A stretch of 64,000 nucleotides of DNA from Candidatus Moraniibacteriota bacterium (GCA_028688415.1 JAQTYF010000001.1:780020-844019), one strand, 5' to 3'; counted from the stretch's first letter, positions 2,508-36,912 are shown. Numbers and translations are program-made. The notes: generated by a model not told the origin, from the letters alone.

Positions 2508-2590
2508 TGCCGCGGGCGAGACTCGAACTCGCACGACCTTGCGATCCGAGGATTTTAAGTCCTCTGCGTATACCATTCCGCCACCGCGGC
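2508..2590 (-). tRNA. tRNA-Leu (anticodon TAA)
   Basis: Manual fold: acceptor GCCGCGG/CCGCGGC, anticodon loop CTTAAAA, long variable arm, T-loop TTCGAGT. CCA not encoded. Confidence 0.8.
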
Positions 2591-2741
2591 TAACGAAAAC
2601 TATGAGGTCCGAAACGGAGTTGAACCGTTGTGAAAGGTTTTGCAGACCTTCGCCTAACCGCTCGGCCATCGGACCTATTCTTTTCTCTGTTAAAACAGTA
2701 TTCTCAGTGTATCGAAATTTCGCTAGAACGTCAACAAAAAA

Positions 2742-2774
2742 AGCACTCTTCAACAAGCTCAGAGTGCTTTTTTG
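2742..2774. terminator. hairpin terminator downstream of the 3D-domain gene
   Basis: agcactct ... agagtgct stem flanked by an A-run and a T-run. Confidence 0.5.
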
Positions 2775-2779
2775 TTTGC

Positions 2780-3334
2780 TTAGTCAACGATTTCAGCAAC
2801 GAGATTTCGACGACCGAATGCGAATGCTTCACCTTTTGTTTCCATATAGATATCGAAGTGATTGCCCTTTATAGCACCACCACGATCTTCACAACGGAGC
2901 ACTCCCACGCCTTCGATAGCAATTTTCGTACCAAAAGGATACGATGGAGGACAAGCAAGTGTTCGTTTTTCTTCCACTTTGAGTCCTGAAGCAGTAATAC
3001 CATCAGATTTTCCACATTCATCGGCTGCTGCAGTATAAGCTGAAGCATTGATGATGAATTTTTCCTTCGAAAGAGATTTCCAGAGATGTTCCTGCTTTTC
3101 CTTCCAACGATTGAGAATTTTTTCTTCTTTTGAAGGAACGACATTCTCAGAAACTATTACCTGTTCTTTTTCTTCTATTTCAAAAGTCCACTTCAAAAGA
3201 AAGGGGTCCGTTTTGAAACTATAGAGACTTGACAAAGGAAGACTATTTTCTTGAGCATCTACCGATGCTGTATTTGTGTTAAAAAGAGCTACTGTAAGTA
3301 CTACTACGAAAAGAAGATCCTTTCGAAATGTCAT
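2780..3334 (-). CDS. secreted 3D-domain protein (MltA/RlpA-like cell-wall binding, lytic transglycosylase-like)
   Basis: Signal peptide, then C-terminal DECGKSDGITASG...FGTKI...GGAIKGNHFDIY 3D-domain signature. Confidence 0.65.
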   Translation of the reverse strand: MTFRKDLLFVVVLTVALFNTNTASVDAQENSLPLSSLYSFKTDPFLLKWTFEIEEKEQVIVSENVVPSKEEKILNRWKEKQEHLWKSLSKEKFIINASAYTAAADECGKSDGITASGLKVEEKRTLACPPSYPFGTKIAIEGVGVLRCEDRGGAIKGNHFDIYMETKGEAFAFGRRNLVAEIVD

Positions 3335-3679
3335 AGATTGTCTTTAGGAGTAAACTCTGTCCCTCGTAAGGGAGAAAGGTTGGCTTCTTAAGTCAACTGG
3401 AGATAATAGCATATTATACAAGTTTTGTCAATACTGATAAACAGATTATTAGCTTATATAAAGCATTTATGTACATAAAAGATCCTATTTTCGAGTCTTT
3501 TTTGTTCAAATATCATACCGCGACAAAGAAAAATCCCTATCCGGAAATGGACAGGGATTTTACTTTGTTGGAGCGGGTAAGGGGAGTCCTTTTTGCTCCG
3601 ACAAAAAGCCGGGGCGCTACACACAGAATACTCGCTCGCTCGCATTCGACTCGCGCCCTTCTCCTCCCACTTACCCAGA

Positions 3680-3712
3680 AAAACTAAAAGACCCAGTAAA
3701 TCTGGATCTTTT
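3680..3712 (-). terminator. hairpin terminator immediately after tRNA-Gly
   Basis: 10-bp stem with one mismatch (aaaagaccc-ag/taaat/ctgggatctttt) followed by a U-run on the minus strand. Confidence 0.5.
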
Positions 3713-3722
3713 AGTTCTTTTG

Positions 3723-3794
3723 AGCGGGTAAGGGGAGTCGAACCCCTATCTAATCCTTGGCAAGGACTCATAATAGCCGCTATACGATACCCGC
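3723..3794 (-). tRNA. tRNA-Gly (anticodon GCC)
   Basis: Manual fold: acceptor GCGGGTA/TACCCGC, anticodon loop TTGCCAA, T-loop TTCGACT. Confidence 0.8.
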
Positions 3795-3932
3795 TTACTC
3801 CGCCAGCTGGCGGATTCGGCGGACAAGCCCGCTATAGCCATCTGACATTTTTACTACACTCTCTATTTTTTTTATATTCTTCTATTCCTCTGTGGGACTG
3901 GTTGGAATCGGACCAACGACCAAGCGGTTATG

Positions 3933-4542
3933 CTTCTCACTATTGCTTTCACAACTTTTTTCAAATTTGTGAGCTGGACTATCCCTTCACCCAAAGGTAG
4001 GGTGTCTGCCGTCTAGTCTCTACACCTTCCTCAACAAACGAGGCTTGGCTCGGGATTGTCATGTAGCTTATCGCCATTTAGATTTCCCCGAATTTGACAG
4101 AGTATCACCCAAAGATTACTCTCTGGGCAGCCCTGCTAGATTCATTCGTTTTGTGTTATGATAATGTTATGAAAAAACTCATAACATGTGTGGTGTGTAA
4201 AAAAGAGTTGTCTGGCAGACAAACAGTTTTTTGTTCCGCCATTTGTAAAAACCAACTTCATCAATCATATCAATCCCAACAAGCCAGAGGCTTAGAGAGA
4301 AAGATGTCACTTTTGAAACAGTTTGGTGGAAAATGTTCAGTTTGTGGCTATAACAAAAATCTTGCCGCATTGACTTTTCACCATATTGACCCAAAAGAAA
4401 AAAGATTTCAGCTGGATATGAGATCTCTTTCAAACAGAAAGCAATCTCATATTGACGAGGAAGCAAGCAAATGTTTGCTTATTTGCAATAACTGTCACGC
4501 CGAATTACACAATCCACAACACAATTTAGAATGAACTCTTTG
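3933..4542 (-). mobile_element. group I intron in the tRNA(CAT) anticodon loop
   Basis: 5' exon ends in U33 and the intron ends in G. Conserved core elements occur in canonical order on the minus strand: P-like AAAUUCGGGGAAA (4081-4095), Q-like AAUCCCGAGCC (4047-4057), R-like UAGAGACUAGACGG (4009-4022), S-like GGGAUAGUCCAG (3974-3985). P7 pairs GACUA with UAGUC. Confidence 0.6.
4169..4534 (+). CDS. HNH endonuclease (homing-endonuclease-like), encoded antisense within the tRNA intron
   Basis: CVVCKK...CSVCGYNKNLAALTFHHIDPKEK...CNNCHAELH: zinc-finger plus HNH motif. The ORF extends upstream to 4094. Confidence 0.7.
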   Translation: MKKLITCVVCKKELSGRQTVFCSAICKNQLHQSYQSQQARGLERKMSLLKQFGGKCSVCGYNKNLAALTFHHIDPKEKRFQLDMRSLSNRKQSHIDEEASKCLLICNNCHAELHNPQHNLE

Positions 4543-4604
4543 AGCCGCGCGCTCTACCACTGAGCTACAGTCCCACTACGCTTTACCTATTGACTACTCT
4601 TTTC

Positions 4605-4634
4605 TCTTCACAGACTTTTGTGCCGAGGGACAGG
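4605..4634 (-). repeat. partial duplicate of the tRNA-Phe 3' end plus its 3' flank
   Basis: tcttcacagacttttgtgccgagggacagg is about 90 percent identical to 4793-4822. No complete cloverleaf can be formed. Confidence 0.5.
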
Positions 4635-4808
4635 TATTTCACTACTCGTCCTTCGGGCTGCGTTCTCTAGGACTTCCGTCCTTGAGTCCTGCTTCGCAGG
4701 TCACCTCAAACGGGCAAACAAATGTTTTCCCGACCCCTTTCCTGTTCAATCGTAACATTTTGAAAGGTTCTTGAGAACAACCTTATTCTTACTCTTTACA
4801 GACTTTTG

Positions 4809-4880
<72 letters not shown>

Positions 4881-4949
4881 ATCATCGCAAACAAACTCAT
4901 GTGTATATCCAGTGTATAACTCTTCTTTTTCTTTTTTATAAGCCGTTTG

Positions 4950-5023
4950 TGCGCGCTCAAGGATTCGAACCTTGGACCCCCTCGGTGTAAACGAGGTGCT
5001 CTAACCAACTGAGCTAAGCGCGC
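4950..5023 (-). tRNA. tRNA-Val (anticodon TAC)
   Basis: Manual fold: acceptor GCGCGCT/AGCGCGC, anticodon loop TTTACAC, T-loop TTCGAAT. Confidence 0.85.
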
Positions 5024-5052
5024 CCAATACTACTTACTATTCATTCATTCTG

Positions 5053-5135
5053 TGCCCAGGAGAAGACTCGAACTTCCAATCCCTTGCGAGAACTAGCACC
5101 TCAAGCTAGCGCGTATACCATTCCGCCACCTGGGC
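5053..5135 (-). tRNA. tRNA-Leu (anticodon GAG)
   Basis: Manual fold: acceptor GCCCAGG/CCTGGGC, anticodon loop TTGAGGT, long variable arm, T-loop TTCGAGT. Confidence 0.8.
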
Positions 5136-23269: not shown

Positions 23270-24685
23270 ATGACAAACGAGGATCTCTGGAAAGCTGTTT
23301 TAGGGCAAATGGAACTTTCTATTTCAAAAGCAAATTTCATTACCTGGTTCAAAAACACGAATATTGTCAGTAATCAAGACGGTATTATTACTATTGGCGT
23401 TCCAAATGGTTTTGCAAAGGAATGGCTTGAGAATAAATACAATCTCTTTATTTTACGTGCACTTAAAGAACTAAGTGGTGATATACAGAGTATTCGTTGT
23501 ATTATTGCTCCTGAAAAAATAATTTCTTCTGTTAATTATTCAACTCCTCAAAAAAATATTGATGCTGTTCGAGCTCCGGAAAATACTGGCTTTGTACGAA
23601 AAAAGATTATAGAAAAACCTTTTTTTACAGAGACGGGTAGTTCTACACCTACTTTTCATGAAACAAATCTCAATAATCGCTATACCTTTGAAAATTTTAT
23701 TGTTGCGGAAAACAACGAGCTTGCTCGAGCGGCTTGTTTTGCTGTTTCACAAAACCTTGGTATGGCCTACAATCCTCTTTTTATTTATGGTGGTGTTGGG
23801 CTCGGAAAAACACATCTTCTCCAATCAATCGGCAATGAACTCGTGAAAAATTCTCCAGAAAAGAGGATTAAATACATCAATTCTGAACGATTTACAACAG
23901 AACTTGTTGATTCAATTAAAAATCAAAAGGTTGATAAATTTAAAGAATATTATCAACAGATGGATCTTCTTATTATTGATGATGTTCAATTTCTCTCAGG
24001 AAGAGAAAAAACACAGAATGAATTCTTTCATATTTTTAATGCCCTCTATCAACTTAATAAACAAATTGTTATCTCAAGCGATCGCCCTCCAAAGGCCATT
24101 CCTACGCTCGAAGAACGGTTAAGGTCTCGTTTTGAAGGAGGAATGATCACTGATATCAGTCGTCCAAACTTCGAAACACGCGTTGCTATTCTAGAATCAA
24201 AAATTGCTGAGAAGTCTTTTCTTATGGATACTCCTTCTATTCATTTTATTGCACAAAATATCACTCAAAATATTCGCGAACTTGAAGGCGCTTTAAACAG
24301 AGTTATTGCTTTTTGTGAGTTTCACAAACTTTCTCCAACACTTGAAAATACAGAAAAGATCCTTTCTCAACTTATAGAAAATAATAAAAAAACTATCCAA
24401 ATAGAGGATATCTTCCGTGTTATTACTCTTTTTTATAATATTACTCAAGAAGATCTTGTAAAAAAAGGACGTAAAAAAGAAATAGCTCATCCTCGGCAAG
24501 TCATGATGTATATGTTACGAACAGAACTTCAAACTCCTTTTTCAAGTATTGGAGATATTTTTGGAGGAAGAGATCATACAACAGCCCTTCATGCATTTGA
24601 AAAGATACAAAAAAACAAAGACCTTCACCCACGACTGAAAGAAGAGTTACAAACACTTAAAGAGCGTCTCTATTACCCGGTATAA
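23270..24685 (+). CDS. dnaA: chromosomal replication initiator DnaA
   Basis: Walker A GVGLGKTHLL; AAA+ domain; C-terminal DNA-binding domain. Confidence 0.9.
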   Translation: MTNEDLWKAVLGQMELSISKANFITWFKNTNIVSNQDGIITIGVPNGFAKEWLENKYNLFILRALKELSGDIQSIRCIIAPEKIISSVNYSTPQKNIDAVRAPENTGFVRKKIIEKPFFTETGSSTPTFHETNLNNRYTFENFIVAENNELARAACFAVSQNLGMAYNPLFIYGGVGLGKTHLLQSIGNELVKNSPEKRIKYINSERFTTELVDSIKNQKVDKFKEYYQQMDLLIIDDVQFLSGREKTQNEFFHIFNALYQLNKQIVISSDRPPKAIPTLEERLRSRFEGGMITDISRPNFETRVAILESKIAEKSFLMDTPSIHFIAQNITQNIRELEGALNRVIAFCEFHKLSPTLENTEKILSQLIENNKKTIQIEDIFRVITLFYNITQEDLVKKGRKKEIAHPRQVMMYMLRTELQTPFSSIGDIFGGRDHTTALHAFEKIQKNKDLHPRLKEELQTLKERLYYPV

Positions 24686-24948
24686 TGTATAAGTGTGTAT
24701 AAGTACCTAAAAATGGTGTAAAGTTGTTGTATAACATTTCAGTTGTTGTGGATAAAAAGAAGTTGTTTTTCTTTTTTCTCTCTTTCTTTAAAAAATAATA
24801 TACTTTCCATCTTCATTCTCTTTTTCCACTCTCCTTAAAAAGATTGTAAAGAAAGCATAAAACAAAGTTATCCAGATATCCACACCACTAATAGTAATAA
24901 TGAAGTCTTTAAAATTTAAAAAATAATAACCATTAATACACTCTCTTT
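24686..24948. promoter_or_regulatory. dnaA-dnaN intergenic oriC-like region with DnaA boxes
   Basis: Perfect TTATCCACA on the complement at 24747-24755. TTATCCAGA at 24868-24876 and TATCCACAC at 24877-24885. AT-rich stretch. One more box, TTATCCACT, at 23172-23180 upstream of dnaA. Confidence 0.55.
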
Positions 24949-26103
24949 ATGAAACTCATTTGTACACAAGAAAACCTCAATAGAATAATTTCTTATTTAG
25001 AGAAAGTAGCTGGAAAACAGTCAACACTTCCAATTTTAAGTAATTTTCTTCTTGAAACAGAAAATGGCAGATTGAAAATATCTGCAACAAATCTCGAAAT
25101 CGGTATTATAGGATATATTGGAGCAAAAATAGAAAAAGAAGGGAAAATAGCAATACCAGCAAAATTACTGAGTAACTTTATTCATAATCTTCCTCTTGGA
25201 GATGTGCTTGAATTAGAAAGCGATACTGAAGGGTTGAAAATAATCAGTACAGCTTATCAGACGAAAATAAAAGGGTTAGATGGAAAAGATTTTCCTATTA
25301 TTCCTGAATATAAGGAAGAATATTTTTTCTCGTTTCCAGCTCAAGAATTAAAAAGAGCTCTTTCTCGACTTCTCTTTTGTATTAGTGTAAATAATGCACG
25401 TTTAGAGCTCACTGGTGTGCATATTTTCTTTTATAAAGACCATATAGAATTAGCTTCTACAGATAGTTTTCGTCTCGCAGAAGAAACTATTCCTCTTGTG
25501 GTCCAAGGAAGTGAATATGATGCATTTCTTACAAACAATCAATCGCTTATCATTCCAGGAAATACCCTTCATGAAATTATTCATATTATTACCCCAGAAA
25601 GTAAAGATGTAAAAATTGCTCTCAAAGAAAATCAAATATTTTTTGAAATAGATGGCGTTCAAATTATATCAAGGATTATTAATGGTAAATATCCAGATTA
25701 TAAGCAGATTATTCCAAAAAATTTCCAATTTCAAGCTGTTTTTGAAAAAGAATCACTACAAAGAGCATTGAAAATAGCAAGTAGTTTTTCTTCCTATAAT
25801 TCAAGTGAAATTACTCTTCATCTTCAATCAAAAGAGAAACAATGTGTTGTTTCATCAGAATCTCAAGAAATAGGTACAAATAAAGCTATTCTTCCTATAG
25901 AGATAATAAAAGATAATATTGAACCACTCACCATTATCTTTAATCCACGATATCTTTTAGAGGGAATAAGTGCTCTTGGAAGTGAAAAAATTCTTTTCTC
26001 TGCAAATGATAAATCAACACCAGTAGAATTAAGAATCTCAGATACAAAAAATACCCTTCTTACAGAAAATTATCTCTATATTGTAATGCCTATTCGTAAA
26101 TAG
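24949..26103 (+). CDS. dnaN: DNA polymerase III beta sliding clamp
   Basis: 384 aa, three-domain clamp; position after dnaA. Confidence 0.9.
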   Translation: MKLICTQENLNRIISYLEKVAGKQSTLPILSNFLLETENGRLKISATNLEIGIIGYIGAKIEKEGKIAIPAKLLSNFIHNLPLGDVLELESDTEGLKIISTAYQTKIKGLDGKDFPIIPEYKEEYFFSFPAQELKRALSRLLFCISVNNARLELTGVHIFFYKDHIELASTDSFRLAEETIPLVVQGSEYDAFLTNNQSLIIPGNTLHEIIHIITPESKDVKIALKENQIFFEIDGVQIISRIINGKYPDYKQIIPKNFQFQAVFEKESLQRALKIASSFSSYNSSEITLHLQSKEKQCVVSSESQEIGTNKAILPIEIIKDNIEPLTIIFNPRYLLEGISALGSEKILFSANDKSTPVELRISDTKNTLLTENYLYIVMPIRK

Positions 26104-26127
26104 AAGACCCTTCTTACAAAGCATATT

Positions 26128-26421
26128 ATGAGAAATCTTAAAGATCTTCTTCCAAGAAAACGCTCTTCTTCTGTTGTTGTGGAAATAGATGAAAAAACAA
26201 TTTTTCATATTGCAAAACGTATTTTAATTGAAGAATATGGCGTTCGTGGTGGAGAAAATATTATACCGAGTTTTTATAAAGAAAAAAAACTCTTTCTTTC
26301 TCCACGAAGTTCTTTGTGGGCAAATGAGGTTTATCTTATGAAAGAACATATTACTCGGAGAATCAATGAAATGTCGGGTAATGAAGTAGTAAAAGAGATA
26401 AAAATTACACAACAAATATAA
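26128..26421 (+). CDS. DUF721/DciA-family small protein
   Basis: 97 aa; ...SLWANEVYLMKEHITRRIN...VKEIKI resembles the DUF721 pattern; sits just downstream of dnaN. Confidence 0.45.
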   Translation: MRNLKDLLPRKRSSSVVVEIDEKTIFHIAKRILIEEYGVRGGENIIPSFYKEKKLFLSPRSSLWANEVYLMKEHITRRINEMSGNEVVKEIKITQQI

Positions 26422-26501
26422 GTGCTGTCACGGCGCTTGAAACTCCATTACTCACCCCAAATAAAAGTAAATCTTTATTTTTTGGGCTCACGAGGAATTA
26501 T

Positions 26502-26528
26502 AAAAACCCTCTACAGTAGAGGGTTTTT
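26502..26528. terminator. bidirectional hairpin terminator
   Basis: aaaaaccctctac-agtagagggttttt. Confidence 0.55.
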
Positions 26529-26554
26529 ATGTGAAAAAAGAAAAGAGGTTGTTT

Positions 26555-29125
26555 TTAGAAGCTGACACTCATATTTTTACTATCAGTATCAGTGTTGCCA
26601 TTTTTATCCTTTACTTCAACACTAATAGTAATAGTAGAAGCATTTTTATCAAGAGGAATGGTGTATCCTACTGTATAAGGATCAGAAGCAGTAGATCCTA
26701 CAGAAGATCCATTTATAGAGTAGGTGACAGATTCTACTCCATAAGGAGCATCAATAGAGGCTGTAAGAGAGAGCGATGCTGATGTTGTGGTATCTGGGGT
26801 GGAAAGTTTGACATCTACCCTATATTTTTTGAAATCACTTTCTTTACATTCATCTGTTGGTGGAGCGCCAAGAATAGATCCTTTTTGGTCTTTATACCAA
26901 TCTTTCACACTTTTCTCCCAATTTTTAAATTGAGAATCATTTTCAGGTTTTTCAGGAATTGGTCCACGAGGATCTTCTCTGTCAACATAAAAGAGAATAT
27001 CATGGGTACTTGTAAAATCTTTTTTATCTTGTTCGCTTTCTGGACAATATTTATTTGAAAGACAATACGTCTTTTTTTCTCCCGGAATAGAACAAACCTT
27101 CAAATCCTTTTCTTTTTCAATTTTTCCTGAAAGCATTGGTTTGTTTGTTTTTCCTTCTCCGTCACCAATTTCATCATCAGGAGTATATTTAGGAAAACTT
27201 TCTAGAGCATAATTTACCAAAGCTTTATCAAGAAAGTATCGCCAAATAGGAGCTGCGACATTCACACCGTCAGACCCCTCAAGCATTGAGCTATTATCAT
27301 TATTTCCTGCCCATACACCAACAGCAAGTGAGGGGGTATACCCAATCGTCCATCCATCGCGAAATTCGTTTGTAGTACCTGTTTTAGCAGCAACCGAACG
27401 AATATCAAATTGAAGGGGTGATTTTGCGCCAAAAACCCATTCCCGATTATTATTATTAGAAAGAACGGAATCGAGCATGGCCACATATTTTTCTTCGATA
27501 ACACGCTCTCCTGTATCAGGAGTATATTCTTCAATTTTTTGTCCTTTAGCATCTTCAATTCGCAAAATAGCGACCTTGTTGTGTCGGATACCTCCTGTTG
27601 CAAGAGTACTATAGGCATTTACATGGTCTAGGAGACGAACCTCTCCTCCTCCTAATACAAGAGATAGGCCGAGTTTCGAGGGATCATTGAGCCCTGTAAT
27701 GCCGAGGTTTTTTGCGGTGGCAATAGCATTCTTCACGCCGACGAGATAGAGTGTTTTGACAGCAGGAACGTTGAGCGATCCCCCGAGAGCTTTCATTATT
27801 GGAAGCGGACCATGAAATTTCCCATCATAATTGTTTGGTTCATAACTTTTTCCTTCAGCTGTTTCAAACTGTGTCTTTGTATCATAAAGAATAGTCTCAG
27901 GAAGATAGCCTTTTTCAAATGCCGCGAGATAAACATAGGGCTTAAAAGAAGAGCCAGGTTGTCGATTTGCAATAGCGACATTGAAATTTGGTTCAAAAGT
28001 ACAGTTCTTTCCTGTGATACACCCTGCCGGCTCTGATGTACCAAAATAATCTTTCGAGCCTACCATAGCGAGAATCTGACCAGTAAGCGGATCCATGGCC
28101 ACAAGAGCAGCATTTGCAGCTTTCCATTTTTTATTTTTTTCTGCAGATTCACGGATAGCCTCCTCAGCAATTTGTTGTTTTTCCCAATCGAGAGTTGTAA
28201 TAACCTTATATCCACCCTGTTCGACTGCCTTATCTCCGTATTTTTGCTGGAGAATATCTTTTATATACATCACAAAATGAGGAGCAGCGAGAATATTTCT
28301 CTGATTTTTAATCTTGCTCAACGTATTTGTTTCTATTGCCTCAGTAGCTTGTTCTTGGGTGATATAGCCAAGTCGCGCCATTGTCTTGAGAGCAAAAATT
28401 TTTCGTCCTATAAGTGCATCCGTATGAGAGCCGTAAGGCGAATAATATGCCGTAGCCTGAGGAAGTGACGCCACGAGAGCGGCTTCGTCGAGAGTCAGTT
28501 CTCGAGCAGGTTTTCCGAAAAATGTCTGAGATGCTGATTCAACACCATAAGCGTTGGACCCATAAGGTATTTCATTGAGATAGAGAGCGAGAATTTCGTC
28601 TTTAGAAAACTTTGTTTCGAGTTCGATAGAAAGAATAACCTCTTTAATTTTTCTTAAGAGCGTCTTTTCATTTGTCAGAAGGGAGTTTTTAACGAACTGT
28701 TGTGTAATAGTTGATCCTCCCTGAGCTTTTCCGAGATTGATGATATCTTTAAAAAGAGAACGAAAAATAGAAGTAATTTTTATACCATGATGATTATAAA
28801 AGTCTTGATCCTCGAGGCTAATAGTAGCGTATTTGATGACATCAGGCATGTCAGCAAAGTCAATAACGGTTCGTTTTTCTTCTCCATGGACATCATAGAG
28901 GAGATGCTCACCACTTCGATCATAGATTTTGGTTGATTCAATAACGACACGGTTATTGATAATGCCAGTACTTGGGAGATCTTTAGCGATATAAACAAAC
29001 CCACCAAGAGCAATCAGTACACCGAGTATAGAGAAAAAAAGCACACCTTTCCACAAAAAAGACCAGAACCTTGTTTTTGGCTTTTCTATGCCCGATATTT
29101 GTCTTCTTTTTCGAAAAAAAGTCAT
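26555..29125 (-). CDS. class A penicillin-binding protein (PBP1A, glycosyltransferase plus transpeptidase) with a C-terminal extension
   Basis: GT51 motifs (EDQDFYNHHGI, GGSTITQQ) and transpeptidase SxxK (PGSSFKP), KTGTT. Start is probably at MTFFRKRR; the ORF extends to 29257. Confidence 0.85.
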   Translation of the reverse strand: MTFFRKRRQISGIEKPKTRFWSFLWKGVLFFSILGVLIALGGFVYIAKDLPSTGIINNRVVIESTKIYDRSGEHLLYDVHGEEKRTVIDFADMPDVIKYATISLEDQDFYNHHGIKITSIFRSLFKDIINLGKAQGGSTITQQFVKNSLLTNEKTLLRKIKEVILSIELETKFSKDEILALYLNEIPYGSNAYGVESASQTFFGKPARELTLDEAALVASLPQATAYYSPYGSHTDALIGRKIFALKTMARLGYITQEQATEAIETNTLSKIKNQRNILAAPHFVMYIKDILQQKYGDKAVEQGGYKVITTLDWEKQQIAEEAIRESAEKNKKWKAANAALVAMDPLTGQILAMVGSKDYFGTSEPAGCITGKNCTFEPNFNVAIANRQPGSSFKPYVYLAAFEKGYLPETILYDTKTQFETAEGKSYEPNNYDGKFHGPLPIMKALGGSLNVPAVKTLYLVGVKNAIATAKNLGITGLNDPSKLGLSLVLGGGEVRLLDHVNAYSTLATGGIRHNKVAILRIEDAKGQKIEEYTPDTGERVIEEKYVAMLDSVLSNNNNREWVFGAKSPLQFDIRSVAAKTGTTNEFRDGWTIGYTPSLAVGVWAGNNDNSSMLEGSDGVNVAAPIWRYFLDKALVNYALESFPKYTPDDEIGDGEGKTNKPMLSGKIEKEKDLKVCSIPGEKKTYCLSNKYCPESEQDKKDFTSTHDILFYVDREDPRGPIPEKPENDSQFKNWEKSVKDWYKDQKGSILGAPPTDECKESDFKKYRVDVKLSTPDTTTSASLSLTASIDAPYGVESVTYSINGSSVGSTASDPYTVGYTIPLDKNASTITISVEVKDKNGNTDTDSKNMSVSF

Positions 29126-29273
29126 AGAGTAGATATGGGAGATATCTCTATTGTATAGCATAAAACAGATGAAAAGACAAGGAGTGGATTTGATTTGAAA
29201 ATTTGATTTTTTTGCTACAGAAGGTATATTTTGATAGTATTGCAAATAGAGAATCAATTATTTTTTTAGAGAG

Positions 29274-30641
29274 ATGTTTGAAAATCCAGCTGAAGTAAAA
29301 CCTAAACCAAAAGAAGAGGCACTCGATACGCAATGGTATTCTCAGTTTGAAAAAATTGGCAGTTTTCAGGCTTACGAATATTTTGATGGTGATAAACAAA
29401 CAAGAGAAAGAGAAAAACAAACATTTCTCGCTGGAGAAAAAGAAAATCCAGAGCTTGACTACCCTTTGCTGAACCTTGAAAATATAGCAAGTCGCGAGGG
29501 AGATCTTCTTCGTCTGAAAGAGTTGATCCTTAATGAGGAGGAGAATGAGGTGGTAAAACAAGTATATTGGTGGAAGCTGAATGAGAAGATTGCTGAAAAT
29601 CGTTTGCTCAAGGCAGCCGCCACTGGCGATCAGAGGAAATTCAAACGATACTCAGAATTCATCTACGGAAAACCATCACCTGAAATCTTTGCTTACTCTT
29701 TAGGAAGAGTAAGACAAATTATGAAAAAAGCAGACGAAAGTGAAAATGAGGAAATTCGAGTACTTGGTAGTGAGTTTGCCTCACTATTTTCCATAAAAGA
29801 TGCTTTTTCTGTGACTATTCCTTCAAGGGAAGTTCAAGCTGTAGCAAGAGAATCAACATTGGAAAGTGTCGGTGACTTAGTGAATATCAATGTTGACTCG
29901 GATCAAGAATTTTCTGCGGAAGAGATTAAGGTGCTTTTTGAAGGTGCGCTCCAAGAGTTATCTTCTGAAGGTTGGATAGTAGTGATTAATCCAAATAAGA
30001 GTGGTATAAGTGTCAACCAAGAAAAAAAGTCTGTAGAAATCCCTGAAAATAAAAAACTTTCTCTCCGTGCCCTCAAGGGTCTGATAGCACACGAAATTGG
30101 AACACACGCCGCTAGAAGAATTCGCGGGGAGAGAACGAAACTCAAGATGCTTGGTTTGGGATTTGATCGTTATGAAGCAGGAGAAGAAGGTATAACAGGA
30201 CTGAGAGAACAAGTCCTCGAAGGAGAGGTAAAGGACTTTTCTGGATTTGATGGGCATTTTGCTATCAGTCTTGCTACTGGGGTTGACGGCCATCCTCGTG
30301 ATTTTCGACAAACTTTTGAAATTTTAAAAAAATATTACCATCTTCAGAATATGCTGAAAGGTATGCCAAGAGAAGAATCTGAAAAAAAAGCCGAGACTTC
30401 TGCCTGGGGAAGATGTGTGAGGACATTCCGCGGGACGAATTCTCAGACTCCGGGAATTTGTTTTACGAAAGACATTATTTATCGTGAAGGAAATATAGCA
30501 ATATGGGAATCTGTTGCTAAAAATACTCCAGAAATGAGCAGGTGGGATGTGGGAAAATATGATCCTTCCAACCCACGTCATATTTGGATTCTTGATCAGT
30601 TGAATATTACTGACGAACAACTTCAGTCGCTTGAAAAATAG
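29274..30641 (+). CDS. DUF1704-like protein with HExxxH (HEIGTH) motif, putative MATCAP-like metallo-carboxypeptidase
   Basis: LIAHEIGTHAARRIRGE motif; 455 aa; convergent with the ATP-grasp operon. Confidence 0.55.
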   Translation: MFENPAEVKPKPKEEALDTQWYSQFEKIGSFQAYEYFDGDKQTREREKQTFLAGEKENPELDYPLLNLENIASREGDLLRLKELILNEEENEVVKQVYWWKLNEKIAENRLLKAAATGDQRKFKRYSEFIYGKPSPEIFAYSLGRVRQIMKKADESENEEIRVLGSEFASLFSIKDAFSVTIPSREVQAVARESTLESVGDLVNINVDSDQEFSAEEIKVLFEGALQELSSEGWIVVINPNKSGISVNQEKKSVEIPENKKLSLRALKGLIAHEIGTHAARRIRGERTKLKMLGLGFDRYEAGEEGITGLREQVLEGEVKDFSGFDGHFAISLATGVDGHPRDFRQTFEILKKYYHLQNMLKGMPREESEKKAETSAWGRCVRTFRGTNSQTPGICFTKDIIYREGNIAIWESVAKNTPEMSRWDVGKYDPSNPRHIWILDQLNITDEQLQSLEK

Positions 30642-30709
30642 AGAATCGTCTTCTCTGTAAATATACATCCATAGAATTTCCTATTGAATTCATGGAGATG
30701 AACAATGTC

Positions 30710-31660
30710 TTACAAAGAAGATCTCTTTTCAAGGGAATCAATAAAATTTTTACAAAATTTTCTCCGATTTTCTCCGGTGATTGAGCCTTTGAACCCTATT
30801 TGATCGTTTATTTCAAAAATATAAGGAGTGCCATCTCGATCGATTCCAAAATCTATTGAATAAAAAGGAGAAGAAAATGCAGCATCAATCAGAGGGTGGA
30901 CTTTACTTACAATAGACCGAAGCGCAACAGGAGCATCCTCATACGAAAATTCAAAACATTGGCCACCCTGACTTATATTCGCGCGAAGCTCTCCTTTTTT
31001 TGGTTCACGTGCCTGGAGCAGTATAGGCGTACTGTTTATTATTATAATACGGAGGTCGTGGCGTCCAGAAATGATATTTGGCACACCATTACTCGTATCA
31101 ACAAATTTCTGAAGAATAAACTTTTTGTCTGGCACAAGAAGAGCAGAAGTGATGTTCTCTGCTTCGGTAATAATAACTCCCTTTCCGCCAAACCCGTCTA
31201 CTGGTTTGAATACTGCCATTTCTTGCGGATGGAATAATAGCCGAGCAGTTTCAAGGTCCTGTTTTGAAGAGATGGGAAAGGTTTTTGGCATGTATTCTTT
31301 GAGGAGCTCATAGGTGAGATCTTTATTGTTGGCAAGTTTTTTGAAGGCGAGAGAATTGAGTGTTTTATGATCAATGTCAGGTGTTGGGAAGTCTTTTCGT
31401 ATGCTTCGATCAAAAATGGCATCAAAAAGAACTTTCTTTTCTTGGAACTCAAATTGTTCCCCGGTAAAAAAGAGTATATTTTCAAATTCCATTCCACCGT
31501 GATGAATGGTAGGTTTTACTCCGAGATACATATCGAGCCCTCGTGATCTTCCTTCATGAAAAAGAGACCAATAAATTTCTCTACGATCGGGAATATGAGC
31601 GTATGGGTCGGTTGCTACTTCTTTTTTTGTGAAGTAGATGAGGATTTTTTTATTTGGCAT
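30710..31660 (-). CDS. ATP-grasp amidoligase (alpha-L-glutamate-ligase-like paralog)
   Basis: VFKPVDGFGGKGVII ATP-grasp motif; C-terminal YIFEIN. Confidence 0.55.
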   Translation of the reverse strand: MPNKKILIYFTKKEVATDPYAHIPDRREIYWSLFHEGRSRGLDMYLGVKPTIHHGGMEFENILFFTGEQFEFQEKKVLFDAIFDRSIRKDFPTPDIDHKTLNSLAFKKLANNKDLTYELLKEYMPKTFPISSKQDLETARLLFHPQEMAVFKPVDGFGGKGVIITEAENITSALLVPDKKFILQKFVDTSNGVPNIISGRHDLRIIIINSTPILLQAREPKKGELRANISQGGQCFEFSYEDAPVALRSIVSKVHPLIDAAFSSPFYSIDFGIDRDGTPYIFEINDQIGFKGSITGENRRKFCKNFIDSLEKRSSL

Positions 31661-32532
31661 AAGTAGTTGAAGAGAGAAATAATTTCTGTTGATTGCGGAT
31701 CTTCTGGTGTGAATCCAGGAGAGCGATTTACTTCAAAGAGGTACATCTTTTTATTTTTTGAAGAAATAACAATATCTACGCCAGCAACCTCAATATGTAA
31801 AATTCTTGATGCTTTTAGTGCGAGTGTCCGAAGCGGTGATGAAATTTTTCTTGGGTCAGAATAGGTTTCTGTTCCGCCGAGACTCGCGTTGTTTCGAAAG
31901 TCCTCGTCAATTTTTCGTGTACGCTCTTCGAGTGCACCGACAACATTCCCGGTGATAAATATACGAAAATCTGATTGATTAGGAATAAACTCTTGAAGAA
32001 TAAGTTTCTCAATGTCACTATGATCGAGAAGGGAAAGAAGTTCTTCTCTAGTGCGTATAAGAAATACTCCTTTGCCTTGTCGAGAAAGTATTTTTTTAGC
32101 AACAAGAGGGAGTTTGAGAAATTTTTCAGCACGAAGTAATTTTTCTTTGTTGTAAGAAGGTGAAAAATATGTTTTCGGAACAGGAAGTCCATTTTCTGCG
32201 AGAACAAACATTTGGGAAAGTTTTCCATTGATAGAACCAAAAACATGATGAGTATCGACAAAGGGAATATTCCTTTTTTGGAGGTAGAGTGCGACAAGAG
32301 TGGCGATGGGTTGGTATTTCCCGGCACGTTTTATATAAACACTATCAAAGCATGAAAGAATTTTCCCATCACAAAGAATACGAGTATTATCTTTCACGAT
32401 AAAAAATTCCATGGATTGAAAATTTCCAAGTTCGTAGAAAAATAAATTCTCAAACATTTTTTTGAGAAGAGGATCAAGACTTTTTAGATCAGTGATTACT
32501 TTGTGAGTCGGCTTGTCAGTAAGGATAAGCAT
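31615..32532 (-). CDS. RimK-type ATP-grasp ligase
   Basis: LVAKKILSRQGKGVFLI ... LFEVNRSPGF RimK-like motifs. Confidence 0.7.
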   Translation of the reverse strand: MLILTDKPTHKVITDLKSLDPLLKKMFENLFFYELGNFQSMEFFIVKDNTRILCDGKILSCFDSVYIKRAGKYQPIATLVALYLQKRNIPFVDTHHVFGSINGKLSQMFVLAENGLPVPKTYFSPSYNKEKLLRAEKFLKLPLVAKKILSRQGKGVFLIRTREELLSLLDHSDIEKLILQEFIPNQSDFRIFITGNVVGALEERTRKIDEDFRNNASLGGTETYSDPRKISSPLRTLALKASRILHIEVAGVDIVISSKNKKMYLFEVNRSPGFTPEDPQSTEIISLFNYLCQIKKSSSTSQKKK

Positions 32533-32536
32533 AATA

Positions 32537-33967
32537 CTATTTGTTCACATCGATAAGAAACTTTTTCAAATGTTTTCGTCCTATAATAACAGGATATGCC
32601 AGATGTGATCGATCGATACACGAAACTTTGGCTGGAAAAGTCAAAGCATCAACAGTGAGAGATATGAGTATTGCTGGTCGATAAGAAATACCATGAGAAG
32701 ATCGAATGAGCAGAGTGTCAGCGAGATCCGGAATAGAAGAGAAGAGTTTTTCACGTTCTTCTTTGGAAAGCTCAGTGAGAACATCTCTCCCCGCCACTTT
32801 TTCTTCGAATTTTTTTAAAACATCTTCGAATCCGAGTTGTTTCGCGAGTTCGATATCGATTGATGTCGAGTCGGCTCCAGTATCTATCTTTGCCTCCACT
32901 TCGATTTCCTTCCCATCTTTTCCTACGAGTTTTATTTTTTCGATACTTCCAATGACATGCTTACCAGAAATTTCCTCGATTTCCTCTTCGATCTCGCCAC
33001 CAAAGAGATTTTTTCCTACCCGCACTCCTCGCTCGGTTGTTTTTATTTTGAGTCCAGAAATACGCTTGAGACGTTCCTTGAGACCGCTCAAATTTGCGAG
33101 CTGGATAGAGAGTCCCGGACGGGCATTGAGTTCGAGAATCACTGGACCACGATCACGATCGATAGCGACATCTGCTCCGAGAAAACCAAGCCCTGAGACT
33201 CTCTGAGCATCAACAGCCATACGAAGAATATTGTTCCAGTACGGAATTTTTATTCCAGAAAGAGCAAGGCGCGTTCCTGGAACGTATTCGATAATATGTC
33301 CTTTTCCCAAGATAGCACTGGTTGTTGTTCCGGTAGCGAGGTCAATGCCGACTCCGATGGCGCCTTGTTGAAGGTTGGCTTTGCCGTCTGAAGCACGCGT
33401 TGGGAGGCGGAGCATGGCCATTACAGGTATATTGTTGAAGATAATAATACGTATATCAGGAATGCCCTTGAAAGCATACGGCTTGAAGAGTTTGAGGAGC
33501 TTCAATCGTTCCTCAAAAAAAGCGACATCAGGAATATTGGAAAGAGAAAATGATCCATCAATAATATTGCGGATATGATTTTTGAGATCTTCTGCGGTTA
33601 TTGTTGAGCCGTTCGCCTTGATCCAGACGAGCGGATTATTTTTTTTTCGGGCATAAACGACGACAATACCCTCTCCTCCGAAGCCACGATTCGGCTTGAG
33701 AGCAAAGCTATCAGGAAGGGATCTAAAATCGAAAGCATCAAGCTCCTCGTAATTTTTAATTTTTGCAATCAGCGTCGAAACACCAAGATTATTTTTTTGT
33801 AAAATGCGTTTACAAAGAAGTTTGCTATCCGCAATTTCCATACTTTTTCGACGATTGTAGGGTCGAATATAATCGAGATTACGGGCGTTCATACCAAGTA
33901 ATCCACGATTTTTTTTGAAGAATTCAAGCATAGAACATGACAAGAAGAAAGAAAAATTCTTTTTCAA
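32537..33967 (-). CDS. ATP-grasp (alpha-L-glutamate-ligase-like) fused to a C-terminal retropepsin-like aspartyl peptidase domain
   Basis: N-terminal GMNARNLDYIRPYN...LKPNRGFGGEGIVV...LELNARPG; C-terminal KIDTGADSTSID (D-T-G-A). Confidence 0.6.
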   Translation of the reverse strand: MKKNFSFFLSCSMLEFFKKNRGLLGMNARNLDYIRPYNRRKSMEIADSKLLCKRILQKNNLGVSTLIAKIKNYEELDAFDFRSLPDSFALKPNRGFGGEGIVVVYARKKNNPLVWIKANGSTITAEDLKNHIRNIIDGSFSLSNIPDVAFFEERLKLLKLFKPYAFKGIPDIRIIIFNNIPVMAMLRLPTRASDGKANLQQGAIGVGIDLATGTTTSAILGKGHIIEYVPGTRLALSGIKIPYWNNILRMAVDAQRVSGLGFLGADVAIDRDRGPVILELNARPGLSIQLANLSGLKERLKRISGLKIKTTERGVRVGKNLFGGEIEEEIEEISGKHVIGSIEKIKLVGKDGKEIEVEAKIDTGADSTSIDIELAKQLGFEDVLKKFEEKVAGRDVLTELSKEEREKLFSSIPDLADTLLIRSSHGISYRPAILISLTVDALTFPAKVSCIDRSHLAYPVIIGRKHLKKFLIDVNK

Positions 33968-34014
33968 AAATAAAAAAATAAGAGAAAAATGTTTTTGTGC
34001 TCAGAATGCATTCT

Positions 34015-34692
34015 TTAGAGATAGCGAGCAATTTTTCGAAAACGAAGATATTCCGTAATACGAAGACCTGTCCATTTGCCGAGGGAAAAATTGATAACAA
34101 AAGTAAAAAGCACCACCCAAGGATATGCTAAAAGAAGATTGGCGAGGGTTTCCCAAGAAATAAGAAAATAGCCAATAACGGAAATAACAAGTGTTTCTGT
34201 TGCAAGAATGAAAGCTATCTTGCTCCCTTTTTCTATCTGAGTAGCAATGAACTTTTCAGCAAGAGTAATCATGATAAGGAGAGGGAAGATAGAAACCGAT
34301 GCGAGACCGGTACGATGATACATCCCACCTATGACGAGTACCATAAGAATAGCAAGAGATACGATAGAGAGGGTGATGGCAACACGAGGAAGATAAAGAA
34401 GACGAAATCTTTTCAGTATGAAACGCGTAACCATTCCAACAAGAATGACGCTGACAAAAATAGCGATACCGTATTTAACTCCATTTGGATCAAACGCAAT
34501 CAACGCAAAGGTGATAATGGAGGGGGTATAGATACCGAACGCTTTGATGCCGATTACCTGACGAAAAAAAGCGACAAGAGTGGCGACAAGGGGGAGCATA
34601 AGGAGAAGAAGAACCGTCTGAAGAGGGACTCCTTGTTCGACACAAAACTGTACGAGAGAATGATAGTGCATAAAAAAATTTTCAATTTTCAA
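34015..34692 (-). CDS. polytopic (6-7 TM) membrane protein, first gene of the ATP-grasp operon
   Basis: 225 aa, almost entirely hydrophobic helices; may correspond to the 7TM module of the 7TM-inactive-transglutaminase partner proteins. Confidence 0.45.
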   Translation of the reverse strand: MKIENFFMHYHSLVQFCVEQGVPLQTVLLLLMLPLVATLVAFFRQVIGIKAFGIYTPSIITFALIAFDPNGVKYGIAIFVSVILVGMVTRFILKRFRLLYLPRVAITLSIVSLAILMVLVIGGMYHRTGLASVSIFPLLIMITLAEKFIATQIEKGSKIAFILATETLVISVIGYFLISWETLANLLLAYPWVVLFTFVINFSLGKWTGLRITEYLRFRKIARYL

Positions 34693-36660: not shown

Positions 36661-36912
36661 TTAGAAAGAAAGGTTTGGGATCAATTGATCAAAAGGAAGC
36701 GAGAGAAAAAGAAGAAAATTCGTTATCAAAAGAAGAGTGAAAACCGAGAGAAATAATGTGATACCAAAAACAGCATAATTTTTTTTAAGAGAATAGCGAA
36801 AAATATGAAAGACAACAAAGAGTCCCATGAGTATATAACTGAAGAAGAGTACTATGTAAATGGCACTGAGAATTTGTGACATAATTTGAAGAAAAAAAAC
36901 AACTCCGAACAC
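36661..36912 (-). CDS. hypothetical small membrane protein
   Basis: 83 aa, two hydrophobic helices. Confidence 0.3.
   Translation of the reverse strand: MFGVVFFLQIMSQILSAIYIVLFFSYILMGLFVVFHIFRYSLKKNYAVFGITLFLSVFTLLLITNFLLFLSLPFDQLIPNLSF

Follow-up and report, generated by a model that had tools for sequence, protein, structure and literature searches.

The closest described relative of the locus analysed here is the rloABC system of Pseudomonas aeruginosa, in which RloA is a secreted retropepsin, RloB an inner-membrane protein joining an inactive transglutaminase to a seven-transmembrane (7TM) module, and RloC a cytoplasmic ATP-grasp protein (Lormand et al., mBio 2025, PMC12239564). RloA cuts runs of at least eight glutamates, the loss of all three RloA paralogues abolishes growth at low osmolarity and disturbs beta-lactam tolerance, biofilm and cell shape, and deletion of rloB or rloC suppresses the defects caused by deletion of rloA1-3; a genome-encoded poly-Glu substrate was not found in Pseudomonas by these authors, and 96% of RloB sequence matches are in Proteobacteria (PMC12239564). 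In the rim system, RimK makes poly-alpha-Glu as well as tails on ribosomal protein S6, and the cytoplasmic retropepsin RimB trims these products (PMC12239564). The locus of interest here lies in a 64,000-nucleotide (nt) stretch of DNA from Candidatus Moraniibacteriota bacterium (GCA_028688415.1, JAQTYF010000001.1:780020-844019; the whole stretch is called the window below), i.e. from a member of Candidatus Moranbacteria/Moraniibacteriota in the Candidate Phyla Radiation (CPR)/Patescibacteria lineage. Its five genes (table 1) code for a 7TM membrane protein, a fusion of an ATP-grasp ligase with a retropepsin domain, two accessory ATP-grasp ligases (ligases 1 and 2) and a metallopeptidase of the MATCAP (DUF1704) family. 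The core of the locus, as judged by sequence comparison, is homologous to rloABC, and we see roughly an even chance (about 0.5) that the whole represents a CPR-lineage variant of the Rlo/Rim systems of ATP-grasp ligase plus retropepsin, making and trimming an acidic peptide at the membrane.

A sequence-only reading of the window had proposed an expanded form of an uncharacterised system, in which three ligases and two peptidases would write and erase C-terminal amino-acid tails on a membrane substrate. All five open reading frames (ORFs) recur at the same positions in our ORF list of the 64-kb window, the motifs and spacings agree with their description (ORF list and motif coordinates), and the family assignments hold throughout in Pfam and NCBIfam profile searches and in profile matches to PDB structures. 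The term "expanded" is also apt, with the 7TM protein and the fusion as the core and the extra ligases and the MATCAP protein as accessory, variable components. What has to be given up is the term "uncharacterised", given the homology of the core to rloABC (PMC12239564).

Table 1. Coordinates of the five genes, their domains and motifs, and other features of the window.
Feature	Position (nt)	Strand	Length or residues (amino acids, aa)	Family, motif or remark
7TM protein	34015-34692	-	225 aa as ORF	PF14402
Ligase-retropepsin fusion	32537-33967	-	476 aa as ORF	
ATP-grasp ligase domain of fusion	33056-33883	-	aa 29-304	Pfam envelope, PF14397
Inter-domain segment LFGGEIEEEIEEISGK	32960-33007	-	aa 321-336	strongly conserved
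Retropepsin (aspartic peptidase) domain of fusion	32543-32956	-	aa 338-475	PF05618
Catalytic motif of fusion	32873-32884		aa 362-365	DTGA
Accessory ligase 1, RimK-family ATP-grasp	31615-32532	-	305 aa	EVNRSPGF
Accessory ligase 2, divergent (third) ATP-grasp	30710-31660	-	316 aa	KPVDGFGGKG, E-I-N motif
MATCAP/DUF1704-family gluzincin metallopeptidase (HExxxH protein)	29274-30641	+	455 aa	convergent with ligase genes
HExxxH motif of MATCAP protein	30090-30107		aa 273-278	HEIGTH
EEG motif of MATCAP protein	30183-30191		E304-E305-G306	
dnaA, dnaN, DciA-like gene, PBP1A gene	23270-29257		97 aa (DciA-like)	adjoin the locus
Hydrophobic ORF	36661-36912	-	83 aa	between ruvB and the bPH_2 gene
Cluster of six tRNA genes	2508-5135	-		
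Group I intron match	3952-4149			RF00028, 59.8 bits (gathering score 50), between two tRNAs of the cluster

The ligase half of the fusion contains GMNARNLDYIRPYN and is assigned to PF14397 (ATPgrasp_ST) with an E-value of 1.1e-68 and 231.9 bits (cut-off 31.4); it also scores 295.3 bits with TIGR02291, the alpha-L-glutamate ligase-like model, whose hypothetical-equivalog cut-off is 314.2. It bears a KPNRGFGGEG loop and the Mg-binding motif E279-L-N281, a glycine-rich loop and an E-x-N magnesium motif being common to all three ligases of the locus. Canonical rloA-rloB-rloC operons are found on a plasmid of Legionella adelaidensis and in Aeromonas caviae, and their products are 41-43% (ligase domain versus RloC), 25-30% (7TM protein) and about 26% (retropepsin) identical to those of the window, the figures for the Legionella plasmid alone being 41%, 30% and 26%. 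No MATCAP gene was found within 6 kb of these Legionella and Aeromonas operons. The 152-aa retropepsin of the Legionella operon (L048:3996-4454, NZ_LR134414.1) is annotated as "RimK/LysX family protein", and directly after rloC there follow two convergent genes for C1-family peptidases.

The retropepsin half matches PF05618 with 35.1 bits (cut-off 27; E-value 1.5e-8), a family formerly misnamed Zn_protease and presently labelled RimB-like, which is also the name given by precomputed ortholog annotation; the NCBIfam models of the RloA1-3 retropepsins match as well. It can be aligned with the crystal structures of an RloA ortholog (9G58 and 9G59) with the DTGA motif in register. Across 38 orthologs, D362, T363, G364, A365, R430 and R453 are invariant (38/38) and K360 is a lysine in 37. 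Both the K-x-D motif and the distance of 23 residues between the two arginines agree with K46, D48, R114 and R137, with which RloA binds and cleaves poly-Glu. Because it forms the C-terminal domain of a ligase polypeptide in which the hydropathy profile reveals no hydrophobic segment, the protease should reside in the cytoplasm. The two-domain architecture is stable, all but two of the best 120 homologs of the fusion (71-100% identical) being recorded with both domains. An AlphaFold2 model of the fusion computed from the single sequence was unusable (predicted local distance difference test score, pLDDT, of 31).

Between the two domains lies LFGGEIEEEIEEISGK, which is 77-86% identical in CPR lineages where the flanking domains reach just 37-66%, with EIEEEIEE almost invariant across several of these lineages. 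Its periodicity is that of an amphipathic helix, the polar face of which consists entirely of Glu in these CPR lineages. Since K, R or Q takes the place of Glu in wider relatives and unfused ligases end in a similar helix, the segment is probably a structural element, i.e. an amphipathic inter-domain helix, rather than a poly-Glu tract. The idea of a Glu-rich linker serving as an autoprocessing or pseudo-substrate site is weakened by the same substitutions, by the helical pattern and by the need of RloA for at least eight consecutive Glu residues.

The membrane protein, described in the sequence-only reading as having six or seven transmembrane helices, has seven according to both hydropathy and an AlphaFold2 model built from 59 sequences (pLDDT 88.5; predicted template-modelling score, pTM, 0.83). 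It matches PF14402 (7TM_transglut) with an E-value of 2.3e-28, and of the RloB model NF052267 it covers only positions 306-505 of 508 (79 bits; cut-off 900); with the match thus confined to the C-terminal approximately 200 positions, the protein lacks the extracytoplasmic inactive transglutaminase domain. Its homologs among the listed matches of the 7TM search are 194-235 aa long, mostly 218 aa. The positive-inside rule gives an N-out/C-in topology, in agreement with the N-terminal extracytoplasmic PKD or transglutaminase domains and the C-terminal ligase domains that occur in relatives. Invariant residues fall mostly into cytoplasmic loops (RQxxGxKxFGxYTP, LLYLPR, QIEKG) and further include the membrane-embedded E139 and E159/T160 and a motif after the seventh helix, G-x3-GLRxxExxRF, the latter retained even in cyanobacterial fusions. 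The pattern points to a conserved platform facing the cytoplasm, and a role as a conduit is possible as well. The extreme C-terminus is basic and variable and for this reason would make a poor, hence unlikely, acceptor for glutamylation.

To place the locus in a comparative context, one genome per species was scanned, yielding 43 related loci with record titles including Moranbacteria, Paceibacteria, Dojkabacteria, Saccharibacteria, Collierbacteria and Microgenomates. The 7TM gene lies directly upstream of the fusion gene and in the same direction in all 40 loci with upstream DNA (40/40); the two thus form an obligate pair, the invariant core of the system. Records titled "uncultured Bdellovibrionales", Micavibrio, Fimivivens or Gammaproteobacteria are among the sources as well (L003, L006, L010, L012, L014, L015, L019, L020, L033 and L034); such titles on a syntenic block of Moranbacteria type look like mislabelled CPR bins.

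The region downstream of the core is of a different nature. Moranbacteria share the gene order ruvB-bPH-yebC-ruvC-7TM-fusion-[slot]-PBP1A-dnaN, and the slot in this frame differs between close relatives, containing from zero to four extra ATP-grasp ligases of at least two types, RimK-type ligases fused to DUF3541, stand-alone DUF3541 proteins or GT4 glycosyltransferases. A MATCAP or divergent MATCAP-like peptidase occupies the slot in ten loci in addition to the window. Accessory ligases and/or MATCAP directly follow the fusion gene in 36 of the 40 loci with downstream DNA, the remaining four, all distant, having the core pair alone. Slot content thus changes fast, and the accessory ligases and the MATCAP-family metallopeptidase are recurrent, interchangeable add-ons. 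As for the earlier count of three ligases and two peptidases, these are indeed all present in the window, but they constitute one of many configurations, because its nearest relatives (fusion protein 84-85% identical) lack MATCAP and have a single accessory ligase, 331 aa long and of another type (L044:8480-9475 and L046:8480-9475, both in the same ruvC-to-dnaA frame). DUF3541 (L012:3176-4993, L022:11070-12845, L024:10370-12163, L043:1409-3226 and L030:12324-13316) appears either fused to a RimK-type ligase (591-605 aa) or as a stand-alone protein between ligase and MATCAP (PF12060, E-value 7e-23). In a single case, from Microgenomates, a GGDEF diguanylate-cyclase gene (L041:11345-12349) is located two genes past a fusion-MATCAP pair, recalling the EAL protein RimA of the rim operon.

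Of the two accessory ligases of the window, ligase 1 belongs to the RimK Pfam family (PF08443; E-value 5e-28, 98.4 bits) and matches the E. coli RimK structures 5zct and 4iwx at 1.5e-15, but stays below the cut-offs of TIGR00768 (107.4 bits versus 143.4) and of the S6-ligase equivalog PRK10446 (63.2 bits versus 331); there is also a weak match to the MvdC family (E-value 1.4e-7, 31 bits; cut-off 425). The tubulin-tyrosine ligase family (PF03133) is matched only in residues 248-285 of ligase 1, a 38-aa portion corresponding to the shared ATP-grasp motif, and no stretch passes on its own. Ligase 2 has weak Pfam matches to GSH-S_ATP (1e-10), YheCD and RimK, glutathione-synthetase-type domains being the best, and the GshB structure 1gsa is matched with an E-value of 0.004. 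Orthologs of ligase 1 (66-80% identity) occur in just three of the 43 loci (L001, L005 and L040) and those of ligase 2 (65-70% identity) in two (L001 and L040).

The fifth protein proved to be DUF1704-like, as had been proposed, scoring above the cut-off of PF08014 (MATCAP, formerly DUF1704; E-value 5.2e-18, 65.6 bits, cut-off 27). Six homologs all retain the HExxxH motif and the Glu downstream of it, with H273, E274, H278, E305, G306, R386, G387, K399, D400 and Y403 invariant among them. A profile of these six sequences matches human MATCAP (7z5g) at 3e-8 with HEIGTH and EEG aligned, a match that needs the profile, since phmmer with the single sequence found none among the PDB sequences. TIGR02421 (QEGLA) is matched nearly over the full length (aa 42-429), but because the score is 47.8 bits versus an equivalog cut-off of 338.65, the protein is not the ortholog of the proteobacterial QEGLA protein. 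Characterised MATCAP/TMCP enzymes shorten acidic tubulin tails at the C-terminal end and also act as deglutamylases (PMC10499314). At other loci the MATCAP-family gene is co-directional with, and downstream of, the fusion gene; only in the window is it inverted.

Domain fusions tie these components together further. A HMMER search of 1.84 billion cluster representatives returned 2068 relatives at E-values of at most 0.001, and architectures were classed for the best 150 of them (50%-identity representatives), with a Pfam spot-check. Among these 150, about 51 proteins combine ligase and retropepsin, 46 are ligase(-retropepsin)-MATCAP chains of approximately 780-816 aa, 39 consist of the ligase only, four are 7TM-ligase fusions, one of them from an Oscillatoria cyanobacterium, and one carries a second ATP-grasp behind ligase and retropepsin. 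An unannotated 584-aa ORF combining 7TM_transglut with ATPgrasp_ST is present on plasmid CP007061.1 of Halobacterium sp. DL1 (L050:6164-7918) and extends the 7TM-ligase pair to Archaea; it adjoins transposase genes. A CPR contig from the Rifle aquifer (AMFJ01026683) has four co-directional genes, coding in this order for a PKD-7TM protein (516 aa), a ligase-retropepsin-MATCAP protein (800 aa) and two ATP-grasp proteins (339 and 333 aa), which are the five component types of the window in another arrangement, with MATCAP fused. Its 7TM protein (L051:101-1651) has an N-terminal PKD domain where RloB has the inactive transglutaminase. The 800-aa protein (EKD49309.1) bears the public name "ketopantoate hydroxymethyltransferase", which looks like a mis-annotation.

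Some details of the layout deserve mention. By ORF coordinates, the 7TM and fusion genes are separated by 47 nt and the fusion and ligase 1 genes by 4 nt, the genes for ligases 1 and 2 overlap by 46 nt, and a 68-nt spacer separates the convergent stops of ligase 2 and MATCAP. Orthologs are, however, annotated from internal ATG codons, which correspond here to starts at nt 33931 for the fusion (464 aa) and nt 34671 for the 7TM protein (218 aa), so the first gap is probably rather 83 nt. The MATCAP gene forms a transcription unit of its own, running towards the ligase genes and away from (divergent to) the PBP1A gene. A scan for promoters and terminators gave no more terminator-like sites than shuffled sequence leads one to expect. 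Housekeeping genes flank the locus on both sides, namely dnaA, dnaN, a DciA-like gene and PBP1A on one and ruvC, yebC, a gene for a bPH_2 membrane protein and ruvB on the other. The minimum of cumulative guanine-cytosine (GC) skew falls at about 24-28 kb, a few kb from the locus, and, together with the proximity of dnaA and dnaN, places the variable ligase slot within a few kb of the probable replication origin. At the position of the small hydrophobic ORF listed in table 1, relatives L044 and L046 have a gene of 72-73 aa without a Pfam match.

How the system might operate can be outlined as follows. The fusion protein would dock on the conserved cytoplasmic face and the C-terminal tail of the 7TM protein, and its ligase domain, using ATP, would add L-glutamate or similar acidic residues stepwise to give an acidic peptide with alpha linkages, unattached or on a primer; the two accessory ligases might prime, extend or diversify this chain. 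The fused retropepsin would cleave within long acidic runs, to release the chain or control its length, while MATCAP would take residues off the C-terminal end, for trimming or recycling. The 7TM protein would be the membrane platform and probably the conduit, with part of the product reaching the cell surface; this export step is suggested by the fact that in Pseudomonas the loss of the periplasmic protease is suppressed by removing RloB or RloC. In sum, the cell would keep acidic peptide at its envelope or membrane in regulated amounts, with a plausible connection to osmotic and envelope homeostasis. Both the chemistry, i.e. synthesis and trimming of an acidic peptide, and the acceptor are what we infer.

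A link of the system to osmotic conditions is circumstantial. The phenotype of rlo is a hypo-osmotic one. At low salinity, Photobacterium damselae increases expression of rimK 52-fold, of a GshB-annotated ATP-grasp gene (RS17020) 38-fold and of a QEGLA gene (RS17025) 27.5-fold (PMC10308900), the latter two presumably being neighbours, as their locus tags are consecutive.

Several points weigh against the mechanism outlined above. The fusion falls slightly below the TIGR02291 cut-off (295 versus 314 bits), and no ligase of the RloC/TIGR02291 type has an established biochemical activity, amino-acid substrate or acceptor. The protease is cytoplasmic here and secreted in the case of RloA, so the "export then degrade" logic of Pseudomonas may not transfer. 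A search of the window for ORFs with an acidic C-terminal tail near the locus found none. The Pfam label of PF14397, "sugar-transfer associated", points to polysaccharide decoration instead. This label speaks for a rival scheme of cell-envelope decoration, with a peptidoglycan precursor, a lipid-linked intermediate or a surface polysaccharide receiving amino acids from the ligases at the membrane and the peptidases remodelling the side chains. ATP-grasp ligases adding amino acids to peptidoglycan precursors do exist, the D-aspartate ligase of Enterococcus being an example. GT4 glycosyltransferases are present in the slot of four loci, one relative has a fused YdjC domain, and the locus adjoins PBP1A in Moranbacteria; beyond the CPR, rlo mutants are beta-lactam sensitive and have shape defects (PMC12239564), and a Shewanella mutant of RloB type over-produces membrane vesicles (PMC12096838). 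Nevertheless, PBP1A is a neighbour in Moranbacteria only, apparently through inherited synteny, with unrelated genes such as those for RNase H, MetRS and MnmA next to other CPR loci, the GT4 and YdjC associations constitute a small minority, and the only substrates known for either peptidase family are peptides or proteins with acidic runs. Envelope decoration of this kind seems to us unlikely.

More serious, albeit still doubtful, is the view closest to the original proposal, namely that one specific protein (S6 or a membrane protein) receives Glu or other residues at its C-terminus from the ligases, with the two peptidases removing them and the 7TM protein acting as the substrate or its holder. 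The RimK/RimB precedent speaks for it, as do the match of ligase 1 to the E. coli RimK structures at 1.5e-15, the protease being cytoplasmic like RimB by virtue of its fusion to the ligase, and the action of characterised MATCAP relatives on protein C-termini. Yet the invariant ligase is of the RloC and not the RimK type, and most related loci, the closest among them, lack the RimK-type gene, the product of which reaches 63 bits where the S6-ligase equivalog demands 331. The gene for S6, rpsF, is not in the window, where no candidate protein with an acidic tail is encoded either, the basic and unconserved C-terminus of the 7TM protein is a poor acceptor, and Pseudomonas has yielded no genome-encoded poly-Glu substrate (PMC12239564). 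A free or exported acidic polymer fits the published genetics at least as well as the putative C-terminal tails on a membrane substrate. A pathway to a ribosomally synthesised and post-translationally modified peptide (RiPP) of graspetide-like type, or to another small natural product, with the protease removing a leader and the 7TM protein exporting the product, is suggested by the resemblance of several ATP-grasps, peptidases and a membrane protein to some RiPP clusters and by the weak MvdC-family match of ligase 1 (E-value 1.4e-7); but gaps of 4-83 nt and one overlap leave no space for a precursor gene, the ligases do not class with graspetide maturases (31 bits versus 425 for MvdC), and the locus is embedded in a conserved series of housekeeping genes close to oriC, making the idea very improbable. 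Finally, the genes might be neighbours by chance or inherited synteny only, considering that the whole ruvB-to-dnaN block is syntenic in Moranbacteria, where adjacency could be passive, and that MATCAP is a separate, convergent transcription unit in the window. We find this barely credible: the 7TM-fusion adjacency persists outside the synteny, in records from Paceibacteria, Dojkabacteria, Saccharibacteria, Collierbacteria and Microgenomates, and multiple independent fusions join every component type, which excludes chance adjacency and supports the inference of one system. The claim of a single functional system is thus borne out by the 40/40 core adjacency and by the ligase-retropepsin-MATCAP, 7TM-ligase and ligase-retropepsin-second ligase fusions. 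Nor did anything emerge of what had been named as speaking against the earlier proposal: the gene linkage is conserved in related genomes, and the ATP-grasps did not turn out to be D-Ala-D-Ala ligases or cyanophycin or glutathione synthetases with known roles.

Returning to a CPR variant of the Rlo/Rim systems as the preferred interpretation, a bolder version of it can be formulated, which we regard as quite unlikely. The number and type of slot ligases differ even among genomes with a 77-85% identical core enzyme, and the slot could be a template-free peptide assembly line, the ligase set of each lineage specifying its own short acidic heteropeptide or polymer, which would be processed by the two peptidases and displayed or released at the surface. 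If so, the origin-proximal slot would be a diversification hot spot comparable to O-antigen or capsule loci, and the ligase-retropepsin-MATCAP chains of other CPR bacteria would represent, in its simplest natural form, a "writer plus two erasers" for a code resembling polyglutamylation.

Irrespective of this version, what RloC-type ligases make and on which acceptor is unsolved, although in P. aeruginosa the system governs osmotic tolerance, sensitivity to beta-lactams, biofilm formation and cell shape, and the CPR proteins offer compact material for addressing these questions, with ligase and protease (often also MATCAP) in one polypeptide next to a membrane partner of 218 aa. That the 7TM and RloC-type pair also occurs outside Proteobacteria (in CPR lineages, in a cyanobacterium and on a plasmid of a haloarchaeon) matters for the published view of rlo as an innovation of Gammaproteobacteria that originated from rim. 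For bacterial MATCAP homologs, their repeated fusion to ATP-grasp ligases provides a concrete, testable role; it is also of relevance to the origin of the eukaryotic enzymes of the tubulin tail cycle.

Much of what is assembled here has been available in databases, i.e. the families, the pairing of ligase and retropepsin and the 7TM/ligase/QEGLA neighbourhood, and the Rlo core has already been studied genetically. In the searchable literature we did not find the CPR architecture (a cytoplasmic protease fused to the ligase, a 7TM protein of minimal size, common ligase-retropepsin-MATCAP chains and a fast-changing origin-proximal slot) or the 7TM-ligase pair beyond Proteobacteria. Klebsiella CfmP, which came up in a keyword search of the literature, is an unrelated TupA-like ATP-grasp, and the PADLOC defence-system models gave no match with any of the five proteins.

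It remains to compare the locus with known systems. Template-free, ATP-dependent synthesis and export of poly-Glu by membrane-associated machinery, accompanied by hydrolases, is exemplified by PgsBCA/CapBCA with the depolymerases CapD and PgdS. The likeness is one of concept only, an analogy between unrelated families (PgsB is Mur-ligase-like) with no homology detected, and the linkage is gamma there and presumably alpha here. With the tubulin cycle of MATCAP/TMCP (KIAA0895L, KIAA0895) and TTL/TTLL, the locus shares the combination of an ATP-grasp ligase with a gluzincin carboxypeptidase of the PF08014 family, for which a corresponding function may be proposed by analogy, and the HExxxH, EEG, R-G and KD-x2-Y motifs of human MATCAP (7z5g) align with the protein of the window; the differences are that no tubulin is involved, that the ligases are not of the TTL family and that the sequence similarity is remote. 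The proteobacterial neighbourhood of TIGR02291, 7TM and TIGR02421 (QEGLA) proteins has the same three family types, but the MATCAP protein of the window is not the QEGLA ortholog. A survey of predicted amidoligase systems by Iyer, Abhiman, Burroughs and Aravind from 2009 (Mol Biosyst 5:1636) reportedly included these family types.

Glutamylation of ribosomal protein S6 by rimK/rimB(/rimA) was reportedly the subject of work by Little and colleagues in 2016 and 2025 (cited in PMC12239564). What the locus has in common with that system is a cytoplasmic ATP-grasp glutamate ligase, here a presumed one, paired with a cytoplasmic poly-Glu-trimming retropepsin; in addition, both the Pfam family and the structure matches of ligase 1 are those of RimK. 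The core ligase of the window is, in contrast, not of the RimK type and has an obligate 7TM partner, and the RimK-type gene is dispensable across related loci and below the RimK equivalog and subfamily cut-offs. Compared with rloABC, the protease is fused to the ligase, cytoplasmic and devoid of a signal peptide rather than stand-alone and secreted, the 7TM protein is without the periplasmic inactive-transglutaminase domain of RloB, the gene order differs, extra ATP-grasp ligases and MATCAP are added, and the host is a member of the CPR. Common to both are an ATP-grasp of the RloC type, a 7TM module of the RloB type and a retropepsin of the RimB/RloA type with DTGA and the basic residues of the substrate channel, all encoded by adjacent, co-directional genes.

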